The notes below the pieces were generated by a model that ran no database searches, had not been told where the DNA came from, and saw nothing but the letters and a program-made list of their open reading frames with translations. A stretch of DNA of 56,707 nt, the filler included, from Dugesia japonica (taxonomy: Eukaryota): assembly GCA_001938525.1 (NCBI GenBank). It is 5 parts of 5 records of this genome, joined end to end, with 100 filler letters (N's around TTAATTAATTAA, not from the genome) between each part and the next. Parts side by side here need not be neighbours in the genome. Positions count along the whole stretch, not along the records: positions 35,717 to 45,897 come from MQRL01610749.1; 4 more parts are not named here. One strand, written 5' to 3'. A program made the position numbers and the translations under genes. The first letter of the stretch is position 1, and every line of letters begins with the position of its first letter. Below, one piece after another: positions 35,717-41,785 of the stretch.

Positions 35717-36400
35717 TTATAACTTTTTAATAAATTAAAAAATTCTTCTTCGGTTGAACCTGGTTGTAAAAATCTTTGTATATTAGAAGAGATTTTATTA
35801 ATATATTGAATACTTACTTTACTTTACCAATTTACTTTACTTTACTTTACTTTATAATTATTACAAGTATATTCTTTTATTTTTATTTTTCAAAATTCAA
35901 AAAACCAACCGATAACCTAAGTAGATATAAAATGACGGTTTCCCGAGAAGTGTTTATTTTTTATTTACAATACACTATTTTTTTCCATGACAGATCGTGA
36001 GGTAAACGAAAGTATACAACTCAGAACGTCACAAATTATTTATTTCAATGAGATTTTTCACTTCTTGGGATTTATGAAATTAAGAATTGTCTACGATAAA
36101 AACAGTCTTAATATTTATATAAATTCAGTCTTGATATTTTTTTTCGGGTATTATCAATACTTTTGTTCGGGCAGTCTTTATGTGTATGTGTGTTGCATAC
36201 GTGTTGCATGGTTGATGTAATCATGCTGTAAAAGGCAGTTGTATTGCATTCAACCAATCATATCAACTAAAACAAATAGAAATTAATAGAAACTTACAAA
36301 TATCATTACAACAAGTATAAATTAATAGAAACTTACAAATATCATTACAAGTATATAAGCAAAGATTTTCGTAACACTAAACACTTTTAAATTTATAAAA

Positions 36401-36837
36401 ATGGTAGAAAATTTACTTACTAAAGATAATGTCTCATCAATTACCGTAGAACTCGGAAAAATTACTAATTTACATCATCACAAGATGTATTTTATCATGA
36501 ATCCGATTATTTATGACTTTAAAGTAATTTTATTTATTGTTTTTATTATAAATTATTAATTTTTCAGAAACCAGCTGTGATTAAAAAATTAAAATACAGT
36601 TTGCTTCTTTCCAATATCAACACGAAGGATAAAAACATGTTAAAAGCATTATTTACCAGATTCAGGAGAGATATAGAAATAAATGATTTGATTTTCATTA
36701 ATTTTAATGAGCAGGACGAAAATAAATATGATGATAAATCTGAATGGATAATACAAGTAGAAATAAAAGGTTACAACAAGTCCATAAATGCAACTGGTGT
36801 GATATGGAAGATCAAAAAGATTCAAAATAAGATCTAA
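36401..36837 (+). CDS. Two-exon, apparently intact 130-aa hypothetical protein (exons 36401-36523, 36568-36837); possible OB-fold ssDNA-binding protein of the Polinton
   Basis: ATG at 36401; a 44-nt GTAATT...TTTTCAG phase-0 intron joins exon 1 in frame to ORF 36577-36837; C-terminus WIIQVEIKGY..ATGVIWKIKKIQ. Confidence 0.6.
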
Positions 36838-37114
36838 TAATTATATAAACTTGTTGTTTTAAATTTTTTTTATTTAATAATAATTTTTTAGTGTTATTTT
36901 ATCATGTGTTATTTATTTTTAAGTAATTTTATTTTAAACGGTAAATTTTTTTTAAAATAAATTTTTCTTTAAAGTATTTTTTTTGTATGTAAGTAATTTA
37001 GATCAAAAAAAATTAATTTTATTAATCAATTAATGGTTTTTAAGAAGAAAAAAAATACATTTTTTGTAATCAATCAACGTTTATGGTCCTAAAGAGTGCC
37101 GGCTTTTTCGTTCA

Positions 37115-37585
37115 CAATTTAAAATTTTTTCTATCACTTTTTTNCCAATCAAATTTATTAAGTCTGATGGTCTGTTATCCACATCTTCTTGAAAATTCAA
37201 AATTTAAAGTTCAAGTATTACAATTTTTCCCGTTGAGAACACATTTACACATAAAGGATCGTATTTGAAAAGACGTAATTCTGAAAATAACTCCGATTCG
37301 AACCAACAGTTGACTTTTTTTTTCAATTTATATACATTTATTGCAAATCTCATATTTATGACAACTGTTAACGATCGTAGTCATATATTTTTAATATCAT
37401 AAGGGTTAAAATCTCGTGGTTCTAAAGGTTTCTTACACCCCATAATTCGACATTTTCTTGATCTGAAGAATATAATTGTATACTTGTCACTTTTGACTTT
37501 GAATTGACATGGTTTACCTATAGGAAAGCTCATTTTTTGTTACTTCTTTTGTCAAATCACCTCTGTAATTAATATTGGTGATCAT
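37115..37585 (-). pseudogene. Divergent TBP-like gene, copy B (near full length, frameshifts and stops)
   Basis: Reconstructed MITNINYRGDLTKEVTK/MSFPIGKPCQFKVKSDKYTIIFFRSRKCRIMG/KKPLEPRDFNPYDIKNI*LRSLTVVINMRFAINVYKLKKKVNCWFESELFSELRLFKYDPLCVNVFSTGKIVIL. Confidence 0.75.
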
Positions 37586-37708
37586 AATAATAATAATTAA
37601 TAAAATGAAATGAATTTCAGTGGGTGTATTGAGGATTTTCATGATTAATTTAATTGATTCGATAAAACAAATATAAATAATGTACTTATTATGAATAAAT
37701 AAAAAGAA

Positions 37709-38311
37709 ATGGAGAAGTTACGAAGGGATGCAGTTGTAGTGGGAAAACTTGTTTGCATGTAAATTACTGAAATCGAATGTATTCAAGTCGAAATTTAATA
37801 AAATATACTGGCATAGAGGTGCGGTAGTTGATTGGACTGACTTAATTAGAATTTCGTAACATCAAAATGAAGATTATAAACAGATTCGATAAAAATTGGA
37901 GCAAAAAATTGAGGCCTGGTGATGTTTTTTGTTGTTGAGGATCTGTATCAATAGGCAGATAAAGAAAAGGATTTCAATAACTTGTTCTCAAAGATGTCAA
38001 GACATTGTAATGTTACTATGATATTCATTACTCGAAACCTATTTCATCAAGGTGGTAGTCATAGAACACGTAATCTAAACGTACAATACTTGGTTCTATT
38101 TTAAAATCCTAGAGATCAAACAGTTGCTGATTTTCTATCAAGACAGGCTTATCCAAATAATAGGCATTTTCTTATTGAATCATTTGAAGATGCAACAGAT
38201 AAACCGCATGGATATCTATTTCTTGACTTTATACAGCAATGTCCAGATGAATATACAGTGAGAACAGATATTTTAAATCCTAATGGTATAACTATTTAAA
38301 ACAAACTAGGT
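37709..38311 (+). pseudogene. Polinton packaging ATPase (A32/FtsK-like)
   Basis: Walker A GCSCSGKT (37726), Walker B VVEDL, SKMSRHCNVTMIFITRNLF, LVLF*NPRD, DATDKPHGYLFLDF..RTDI. Confidence 0.85.
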
Positions 38312-38331
38312 AATTTTATTCATGTTATAAA

Positions 38332-39291: not shown

Positions 39292-39585
39292 ATGAAATTA
39301 CAACGAAGTATACCGTTTTTACTGCTTTGATTAAATGTCAAAATCTTCGAGAATGAAAACTTGCAATTATTTACACCTTATGTTATAAATGATTTACTTA
39401 GGATTATCATAATTATTGTTTGTGGTAATGTAGTATTGAGTAAAGCCAAAAAGGAAGTATTGAAAAAAATTAAAAAATTATTATTAACTCTTGTAAATAA
39501 TAAAAATAGAAAAATGATGAGACGAGTAATGACTAAACAAGGTGGTGGTTTTATAGCAGCAATAGGATTACCTCATTTCAAATAA
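39292..39585 (+). pseudogene. Conserved small Polinton protein (GNVxL...KQGGGF hydrophobic tail; core/membrane-active-like), copy 1
   Basis: INDLLRIIIIIVCGNVVLSKAKKEVLKKIKKLLLTLVN...MTKQGGGFIAAIGL. Confidence 0.65.
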
Positions 39586-39646
39586 ACAATGAGCGGATTG
39601 CAAACATTACCTAATTTTGAATTGAAATTTTCATCAAATTGTTGTA

Positions 39647-40295
39647 ATGGGAGCAAAAGTGAAAACAATAGGGATAGATACAAAAAACCCAGCAGGTTTC
39701 CGAGGTGTAGAAAAGTTAATGAAAGCAGCTCAAAAGTCAAGAAGATAGACGGAAAAAATGGTTATCAGGTTAGCTGACATACAGTCTGAACAATCTGATG
39801 TTTAAAAAATTTCCAACAAGAGCATATAAAACAAATGGTATTGGCGATTTTTGGCAAATGAATTTGATGGAAATGATTCCATATTCAAAAATTAATAAAG
39901 GTTACAAATATAGTCTAACATGTATTGATGTATTCAGCAGATTTGCACGAGCAATTCCAGTTAAATCGAAATCTGCTAATGATAGGGAGCCAGAAATCAA
40001 GACAATGTTCAAAGATGGACACCCAGATAATTTACAAACGTATTTGGGTAAAGAATTTTATAATTCTAAAGTGAAACAACTTATTAATTATCTAAAAATA
40101 AACCATTATAGTATATTCTTGCAAAATAAAGCTGTAGATGTAGAGAGATTTAATCGTACATTGAAAGATCCTTTGAAAAAGTACTTTGTACATGTTGGTA
40201 ATAAAACATGGACAAATGTTTTACCAAAACTTATTAAAAATCATTCCAGTCAAAAAGGTTTATAGGGCGAAAGACCTGTTGATGTAAGTTCAAAT
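39647..40295 (+). pseudogene. Polinton retroviral-like (rve) integrase, 3' truncated
   Basis: TKNPAGFRGVEKLMK..WLS, then KKFPTR..WQMNLMEM..GYKYSLTCIDVFSRFA..LQTYLGKEF..KAVDVERFNRTLK; catalytic Asp residues mutated. Confidence 0.9.
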
Positions 40296-40549
40296 AATCA
40301 ACTAACATACACACACTTTCCACACACATACATGCGTAATACCATCTGTCACTATTACCGCAATACCTTTAAAAAAAATTTATTAATTTAAACAGAAAAA
40401 AATTCAAAATAAATGAAAACAAAATTTAAAATTCATAAAAAATTCCCCCATTAATAAACAAAAACATAAAATTGAAAAAAATATTTGATCCGATCAAAAA
40501 TCTTAAAATTCAAAATCCACGATAACCAATAGCTCACTTTTCTCAGATC

Positions 40550-40615
40550 ACTATGTTTTTTTGCTAGGGTAGGAGGGGAGAAGGGGGTAATCTGATGCGC
40601 TCACATCTACCTACT
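40550..40615. repeat. Polinton-type right terminus
   Basis: G-rich tract followed by GATGCGCTCACATCTACCTACT, matching CATGCGCCACTATCTACCTACT at 50586. Confidence 0.6.
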
Positions 40616-40679
40616 TCACATGAAGAGAAAAATAATTGAAGTAGTTAAGATTTTTTATTAATTTAATTTAATTTTAGAA

Positions 40680-41785
40680 TGAAAATTCTTTGAATGAAAA
40701 TATGAAAAGGAAGATTTCTTCTGAAAATCGGGGAAATAATAAGAGAAGAATAACACGAAGGATTAACAATGATTGGTAAATCAGATTTCAATGAATCATA
40801 TTTCAGTCGCCAATTCAAGGTTAAGAATTCTGAATTGAAATTCAAGAACACGTGAAAAATAAGGTGGAAGAAGAGGTCAAGAAATTTAAACATTGTAAAG
40901 TGCAATTTAGAATTCATGTATAATTTGAAAAGAATGCTGGTGAGGAAGAAGAAATTAAAGAATGGTCGTTGTTACACAAGGCTATGGAATACTCACATGA
41001 TTTTATGGATAAAATAACAGAAAAAGCAAATGCTGAAATTTCAATGTTTTCGGAANNNNNNNNNNNNNNNNNNNNNNNNNNNNNNNNNNNNNNNNNNNNN
41101 NNNNNAATGATTGGTAAATCAGATTTCAATGAATCATATTTCAGTCGCCAATTCAAGGTTAAGAATTCTGAATTGAAATCGGTTCCAATTCAAGAACACG
41201 TGAAAAATAAGGTGGAAGAAGAGGTCAAGAAATTCAAACATTGTAAGGTGCAATTTAGAATTCATGTATAATTTGAAAAGAATGCTGGTGAGGAAGAAGA
41301 AATCAAAGAATGGTCGTTTTTACACAAGCCTATGGAATACTCACATGATTTTATGGATAAAATAACAGAAAAAGCAAATGCTGAAATTTCAATGTTTTCG
41401 GAACTAAGCAGTGGATGGAAAATTAAAATAATATTAGAGCTAAGATTTAGTTTGAAGAAATTTTTCCCAGTAATCTATCTGGTTGATTATACATCAAAGT
41501 TCTACAGCATTAAGTCAATCAAAAGCTATAGATATTGTTCATAATACGGACAATAAATGTTTCATATTTAGCATACTTACAGTGCTTAAGTAGTTAAGGA
41601 TCGTCGATGTTGGTCACAAAAATACAATTGCTACATAAATGAATTAGTATGCCAGTTAAGCTGATTAACATTCCAGAATTTCAAAAGAAAAATAATTAAT
41701 CGATCACAGTGTTTAAATATAATCAAACTATTTATAAAGATAAAAATGAAATTTTATACAAAAACCCGTATGTCGATATAGTTAC
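40680..41785 (+). pseudogene. Polinton pPolB N-terminal region (with an assembly duplication around gap 41056-41105)
   Basis: FSELSSGWKIKII (cf. ..GSGW....I), KAIDIVHNTDNKCFIFSILTVL, MPVKLINIPEFQKKN..ITVF; homologous to 13180-13560. Confidence 0.75.

Follow-up and report, generated by a model that had tools for sequence, protein, structure and literature searches.

What kind of element is represented by the tightly packed, virus-like genes at positions 35717-45897 of the DNA analysed here, and do all of these genes belong together? This DNA (hereafter the window) is a stretch of 56,707 nucleotides made of five joined parts of the Dugesia japonica assembly GCA_001938525.1, filler included, and the positions under study come from one contig, MQRL01610749.1 (C610749 in our numbering), of this AT-rich and fragmented 854 Mb assembly. 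The original prediction had seen here one virus-like module with two unusual genes on its left and a polymerase gene on its right. We find that positions 36100-40615 are one decayed, internally deleted copy of a Maverick/Polinton (adintovirus-type) element of an abundant family, that this family carries a compact TBP-like gene next to a spliced gene for a predicted single-stranded DNA-binding protein (SSB), and that the copy was likely inserted just upstream of a polymerase gene of another family, called family B below, which was later cut by a Gypsy-type element. The anatomy of the copy is held with high confidence, and the explanation as a whole (a decayed deletion copy with SSB and TBP-like cargo, placed by insertion beside a family B polymerase) we consider probable.

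The gene order and strands that had been predicted are all present: the spliced gene (+), the TBP-like gene (-), and then, all on the plus strand, the ATPase, a small basic open reading frame (ORF), a GNVxL/QGGGF protein, the integrase, a terminus-like motif and the N-terminal part of a protein-primed family B polymerase (pPolB). As had also been said, no capsid or protease gene lies in the stretch. The features are, by position in the window:

36102..36400, no strand: upstream region common to other copies; homology starts at about 36102-36160 and the left terminal repeat is off the contig
36401..36837 (36401-36523 and 36568-36837), plus: two-exon gene, predicted SSB, 130 amino acids; the frame is open here
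36524..36567, plus: intron of 44 nt, GT-AG, phase 0, deduced from homology
37141..37585, minus: compact TBP-like gene with one frameshift and two stops; its largest piece matches Pfam TBP at E 1.1e-4
37709..38299, plus: A32/FtsK-type packaging ATPase, broken; 56-72% identity to the open ATPases of loci L209 and L214
38332..39252, plus: small basic ORF, split in two by an insertion
38427..39144, no strand: inserted AT-rich repeat, not in other copies, with matches elsewhere in the window
39251..39257, plus: TATAAAC box that lies 41 nt ahead of the QGGGF gene and overlaps the end of the small ORF
39292..39585, plus: GNVxL/QGGGF protein, broken near its 5' end; 40% to the L214 protein
39589..40305, plus: short ORF (39589-39777) and rve integrase, the latter cut at 40305 by an internal deletion
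40305..40615, plus: terminal inverted repeat on the right, closing the element at 40615
40616..41779, plus: family B upstream DNA and N-terminal part of pPolB
41780..45897, minus: insertion cutting pPolB, with decayed Gypsy-type reverse transcriptase and integrase pieces (rve and Integrase_H2C2 at 44005-44459); its long terminal repeats are not delimited

All genes of the module are broken in this copy except the leftmost one. The ATPase has two frameshifts and three stops, and the integrase has stops and one frameshift in addition to its truncation at 40305. This truncation, like the short ORF between the integrase and the QGGGF gene, had not been noticed before, nor had the near-repetition of 40768-41055 at 41106-41403 (95% identical, across a gap of 50 N), which is likely not biological and stems from an assembly join or from two haplotypes. 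A repeat does split the small basic ORF, as other copies run directly from 38426 to 39145, and the terminus-like motif is a real and sharp end, the same TACT being found in 16 of 26 other hits that reach it. The name "Polinton-like virus" does not hold in its narrower sense, the element being a Maverick/Polinton with an rve integrase and a pPolB. The integrase piece scores E 4.9e-6 against Pfam rve, short of the cut-off, and its open relative in L214 passes with E 1.1e-12; the L214 ATPase matches Pox_A32 at E 1.8e-6. As the copy runs from the middle of the integrase straight into the right terminal repeat, it is a deletion derivative, and this internal deletion explains why capsid and protease genes, present in the family, are missing from it. 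The copy itself is likely inert.

Searches of the genome's own DNA returned between 416 and 4578 first-look candidates per part of the module, figures that are not copy numbers. Linkage was counted in fetched loci with 1.5-kb flanks, a few of which are near duplicates. Among other ATPase loci, 8/9 carry the TBP-like gene and 7/9 the QGGGF gene; among other TBP-like loci, 13/19 carry the ATPase and 6/19 the SSB gene; and the TBP-like gene accompanies the SSB gene in 8/19 SSB loci. Integrase homology stops at 40300-40305 in 17 of the 19 other loci, and the inspected copies go on with the integrase C-terminus and then, in most, a penton-like gene. The searches yielded longer copies, though no single contig that is complete with both ends. 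Contig L101 unites TBP-like gene, ATPase, integrase, penton, major capsid protein (MCP), protease and pPolB, and the right arm seen in L137, L136, L102 and L101 consists of penton, a short core gene, major capsid and protease, with pPolB in L137 and L101. A pPolB lies inside the family members L101, L137, L134, L097, L209 and L214 and has been deleted from the present copy. The terminal inverted repeats have AG/AGT ends and only the right one is on our contig; L092, L093, L094 and L109 carry 40305-40615 in inverted orientation left of their SSB gene, and the two-ended copy L292 is flanked by a 6-bp target duplication, seen in this one copy.

The labels of the right-arm and core proteins differ in their basis. 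The L214 MCP scores 0.98 in the Atlas to a cluster in which 65% of members bear PF21738 and is 49% to the L136 copy, while Pfam and PDB sequence searches with it were blank; the protease piece of L136 scores E 0.0017 against Peptidase_C5, short of the Pfam cut-off. We take the penton gene to be such from motif and position, a Pfam search of it having given no match, and the core gene is likewise our presumption. For pPolB we rely on motifs and on tblastn among relatives; its sole Pfam match is Endonuclease_7, and the Cys and His motifs in its N-terminal translations we presume to be an OTU domain. The QGGGF protein falls with unnamed Atlas clusters at 0.95 and with Adeno_PX at 0.79, and is likely a virion core protein, for which pX-like is a weak lead.

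The two left-hand genes belong to the module, since longer relatives in this genome and in metagenomes carry both of them. Open relatives of the TBP-like gene encode about 150 amino acids, with 22 relatives at 41-78%. A structural model (pLDDT 93.8) has the two-repeat saddle fold, matches yeast TBP in Foldseek at E 1.6e-9 and aligns over the whole saddle with cellular TBPs at TM 0.68-0.80 and 16-24% identity; the first repeat is reduced, its strands being kept and its helices measuring 5 and 7 residues. A TBP profile search gave 53 clusters at E up to 1e-30. In metagenomes we found 51 loci with the TBP-like gene, accompanied by the ATPase in 14, protease in 9, integrase in 8 and MCP in 7, and two of these loci, L209 and L214, carry the whole core set. 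Between subfamilies dN is far smaller than dS (0.18/0.55 and 0.17/0.92 for the TBP-like gene, 0.14/0.48 for the SSB gene), and in some pairs of close copies dN equals dS (0.19/0.19, 0.14/0.14), a pattern to be expected if the gene is kept while the element is active and decays after insertion. Identity to the canonical TBP-type genes of this genome is 27-34%, over one repeat. Like the SSB gene, the TBP-like gene is true cargo of the family, and it is not derived from the host TBP. The genome holds at least six canonical TBP-type loci (L340-L346), with both repeats in one open frame in L342, L343 and L346.

The spliced gene starts with the ATG at 36401, has a first exon of 123 nt and a second reaching to 36837. 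In the 39 rows of the intron alignment, which were not dereplicated, the splice sites are GT in 31/39 and AG in 33/39. Of the 51 metagenomic loci, 26 contain relatives, which are uninterrupted at this intron position, and the two exons map next to each other on the profile (positions 46-70 and 75-167). Exon 2 reaches 31.7 bits, compared with 10.2 or less in 500 shuffles, and exon 1 alone is weak (5.9 bits). The model of the L214 relative (pLDDT 92.3) is an OB fold with a capping helix, and its top folds are Enc34 SSB (Z 8.4), DUF2815 (8.3), T7 gp2.5 (7.9) and African swine fever virus (ASFV) CP312R (6.8), the next being at 5.6; among viral models, Foldseek gave 14 matches at E up to 0.001, many of them giant-virus proteins. 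From these models we regard the product as quite probably an SSB of T7 gp2.5/Enc34 type. It counts against this call that the Z scores are near 8 and that Foldseek in the PDB, which ranks Enc34 SSB and gp2.5 first, does so at only E 0.06. A protein search with exon 2 alone gave no match at E 0.01 (3 candidates), and the relatives surfaced through the metagenomic loci only. No spliced joint across the intron was seen in RNA at a depth of about 1-7, which is too low to decide either way. In L210, L212, L214, L215, L217 and L231 several of the SSB genes are without an early in-frame ATG, and ahead of those of L214 and L231 is a T-rich stretch with AG at its end, so an intron may lie farther upstream in these relatives. 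Two SSB-like genes each are carried by L215, L221 and L231.

What, then, might a virus-encoded TBP do in such an element? A possible answer comes from a TATAAAC box, counted over 34 metagenomic loci after dereplication. The box precedes the start codon by no more than 60 nt for the ATPase in 10/12 cases, for the QGGGF gene in 9/9, for the gene after the protease in 6/9 and for the MCP gene in 4/7, with a background of 0.024, and before the ATPase and QGGGF genes it stands at about 31-38 nt. An ORF start lies 25-45 nt downstream of 46/111 TATAAAC boxes, as compared with 3/120 for the A variant, 14/106 for T and 1/51 for G. The box was found before none of 31 TBP-like genes; instead, 13 of these genes show a canonical TATA box. 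In the planarian genome, distinct copies keep the box before the ATPase in 11/20, the small ORF in 14/29 and the QGGGF gene in 25/27; the copy at our locus retains only the last of these.

In an active family, the TBP-like and SSB genes would be expressed first, through ordinary promoters used by host polymerase II. Replication of the linear genome by pPolB would start at the ends, and the SSB would likely cover the strand that is displaced. Next, the viral TBP would recognise the TATAAAC boxes and turn on the ATPase, core, integrase and capsid genes, and the rve integrase would insert the product with 6-bp duplications. Such a late-gene switch, drawn by analogy with herpesviruses, we put forward tentatively, as a proposal falling just short of an even balance, and we give the same guarded standing to the broader idea of a widespread animal Maverick clade with its own early-to-late switch, built on a 150-amino-acid viral TBP at TATAAAC together with a T7-type SSB.

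The most serious alternative, plausible and yet itself somewhat below an even balance, is that the TBP-like gene is maintained viral cargo without being a late-gene switch: it would aid all viral promoters, act at the genome ends or serve as a decoy, and TATAAAC would be read by host factors or be a polyadenylation signal. Several observations weigh against the switch. The box lies near an ORF stop about as often (43/111) as before an ORF start (46/111), with both in 22, so that it may be a 3'-end (polyadenylation) signal; within 60 nt it is missing before most penton (1/4 with the box), core (1/6) and protease (0/5) genes; and no TBP-less Maverick was found to serve as a control, in IMG/VR scans with the TBP-like, ATPase and MCP alignments or in a search of a phage collection. 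Reads from relatives of the ATPase and integrase, moreover, mostly run the same way as the TBP-like reads, antisense to the genes they come from. The non-switch alternative also draws on the curtailed first repeat, and on the report, in the available part of PMC4893493, that BcRF1 of Epstein-Barr virus (EBV) by itself makes no distinction in vitro between TATA and TATT. Against that alternative, the spacing from box to ATPase start is tight, 31-36 nt in 11/12, while the nearest upstream stop is anywhere from 3 to more than 400 nt away; the 11 of 20 copies in this genome that keep the box before the ATPase do so where no same-strand gene lies upstream; and the box never precedes the TBP-like gene, which has a canonical one in 13 of 31 cases.

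The RNA runs, whose library strandedness is not on record, contribute the following. No reads of at least 99% identity fell on the present copy in three runs (X2, X3, X6), and among RNA datasets none is listed as holding this stretch. Relatives are weakly transcribed, with SSB and TBP-like reads running in opposite directions that match the strands of the two genes. One locus, L098 780-4121, drew 877-1217 family reads of about 13 million in the oligo-dT runs X3-X5.

We return to the polymerase. The first reading had made it part of the one module, a claim that stands for the five left-hand genes and fails for pPolB, which lies outside the terminus and belongs to a separate family. None of 19 other loci with a pPolB of the type seen here holds any module part. 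In a tree built on the N-terminal 200 residues (37 rows, the best single stretch per locus, our row being 44% filled), the polymerase of our contig groups with the family B loci at 100/100 and the module-linked polymerases of L097, L101, L134 and L137 stand apart at 88/98. Because it lies beyond the element end at 40615 and groups with a separate family, this pPolB is not the polymerase of the module. Homology of all 19 B loci to our contig begins at 40616-40734, and their DNA further upstream is different and repeat-rich, with about 2 kb of tandem repeats, in units of 31 bp in some copies. Family B has a sharp end of its own in TACT, about 550 nt after the pPolB stop (L110-L128, L254-L285), and TBP-like, ATPase and integrase genes were found on none of 20 B contigs over the 0.1-7.6 kb upstream. 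In L284 both ends enclose pPolB pieces only; family B may be a polymerase-only element, and internal deletion explains L284 equally well. On our contig the pPolB homology stops at 41779 and is followed, as predicted, by Gypsy-type integrase pieces (rve, Integrase_H2C2) on the minus strand.

It is unlikely, in our estimation, that module and pPolB come instead from the same virus as one rearranged element, its terminal repeat marking an internal rearrangement, as first proposed. This would account for the shared strand and close packing, and for the similar numbers of first-look candidates for the SSB gene (416), the element end (535) and the B-type pPolB (621). Further points weigh against an insertion beside family B. 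For our copy, neither the left end nor the target duplication turned up among the 50 pattern matches examined out of 73; none of these 50 joins B-family upstream DNA to the element end, and a backwards control pattern matched 65 times. The ATPase group closest to ours (the present copy, L075, L095, L004, L017 and L018) was never seen with a polymerase, its link to one running through L097 with support of only 89/80. In L381, of another lineage and a different layout, a B-like pPolB lies beside TBP-like and ATPase genes, and in the B locus L114 a piece of MCP stands about 2.2 kb upstream. A single rearranged element is nevertheless opposed by B DNA that starts right at the terminus and in other copies continues upstream into unrelated repeats, by the lack of module parts in the 19 B loci, by module-linked polymerases that form another clade and by the different end of family B; the L114 piece, for its part, is 80-84% like the main family and has no counterpart in other B loci (20 examined). 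The B-like pPolB of L381 (C573640, 1942-7031; 68-70% DNA identity) is to the left of the TBP-like gene and points outward. An integrase copy, L138, was considered as linked to B-family upstream DNA and rejected, what they share being a tandem repeat.

A late capture of both left-hand genes, as host genes or pseudogenes, by the element in this genome, which a spliceosomal-type intron in the SSB gene and the membership of TBP in a host gene family might suggest, is highly improbable, and the idea survives only if the metagenomic contigs stem from close relatives of the host Dugesia japonica, given that the closest relatives are in metagenomic Mavericks (39-62%, set against 27-34% over a single repeat for the host TBP-type genes) and that the SSB and TBP-like genes adjoin in distant elements and in diverged subfamilies of this genome.

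Other observations concern the wider family. A TBP profile gave 1511 first-look candidates in the genome, where L370-L383 and L347-L349 are diverged TBP-bearing Maverick subfamilies whose TBP-like proteins are 43-51% to that of L214 and several of which keep the order SSB, TBP, ATPase. In L310-L369, many different elements share the start AGTAGGTAGAT and then diverge. Fragments of related elements (main-clade pPolB, TBP-like, QGGGF, integrase) occur elsewhere in the window at 13150-13590, 20177-20488, 47011-47317, 52116-52449 and 56535-56707, and a separate decayed Gypsy-type gag-pol (zinc knuckles, protease, reverse transcriptase) precedes our stretch at 30700-33750. The metagenomic element L209 has a ubiquitin-conjugating enzyme gene (225-719, minus strand; UQ_con E 1.7e-12) to the left of its SSB and TBP-like genes. 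The pPolB of L214 contains at residues 372-422 an Endonuclease VII (HNH-type) insertion (E 7.9e-5), and the same motif occurs in family B; this domain is called specific to oomycete and nematode pPolB2 in the available part of PMC10748475.

The copy at our locus is an ordinary dead fragment, and its value lies in the family that it represents. If the proposed switch is real, these elements would be self-regulating nuclear viruses that reached the herpesvirus TATT solution independently, and late genes could be recognised by TATAAAC whatever the genome. No virions of vertebrate Mavericks have been observed, according to the available part of PMC8097293. For the question whether animal Mavericks are real viruses whose life cycle is regulated, a virus-encoded TBP paired with its own promoter box would directly point to a programme ordered in time, and the predicted SSB would fill a gap in the Maverick replication kit. 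In print we found a TBP-like gene in Mavericks only as a label in the legend of figure 5, in the non-animal section, of Starrett et al. 2021 (PMC8502044, seen in part), and figures, Repbase and subscription papers may annotate it; one supplement of that paper gave no match, and no TBP was found in the available parts of PMC10748475, PMC11161782, PMC11071296 and 10.64898/2026.06.19.733378. No paper was found on an SSB or a TATAAAC box in Mavericks, in a search that left figures, most supplements and Repbase outside, and IMG/VR yielded no relative of the TBP-like, ATPase or MCP alignments.

How, finally, does the family compare with known systems? With animal Mavericks/Polintons, which are also called adintoviruses and are defined here after the available parts of PMC10748475, PMC8097293 (Barreat and Katzourakis 2021) and PMC8502044, it has in common the rve integrase, A32/FtsK ATPase, double-jelly-roll capsid, a putative penton, a putative adenain-type protease, pPolB, terminal inverted repeats starting with AGT, a 6-bp target duplication and mostly degraded copies. 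[quoted passage not shown] With T7 gp2.5, Enc34 and ASFV CP312R the predicted SSB shares the OB fold and capping helix, over 101-112 aligned residues at a root-mean-square deviation of 2.6-3.5, but identity is 8-10%, the family protein has about 120-130 amino acids and the present copy has no acidic tail. Cellular TBP (PF00352) and the family protein share the saddle fold over about 175 aligned columns, with a complete second repeat and an EPELF-type loop; the latter differs in its 16-24% identity, in being some 30 residues shorter and in having both first-repeat helices reduced. The beta- and gammaherpesviruses, as described in the available part of PMC4893493, have a viral TBP (EBV BcRF1, ORF24 of Kaposi's sarcoma-associated herpesvirus, UL87 of cytomegalovirus) that works in a six-member complex on TATT late promoters, with binding shown. 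The protein of the planarian family, known from sequence and models, is by comparison a stand-alone one of 150 amino acids, recognisable by Pfam TBP, with TATAAAC as its putative box; no partners of a viral TBP are evident among the ORFs of L209 and L214, where no dedicated search was made. What the two systems have in common is a virus-encoded TBP-fold protein and a variant TATA box before structural genes, a likeness that we offer as analogy and not as membership.

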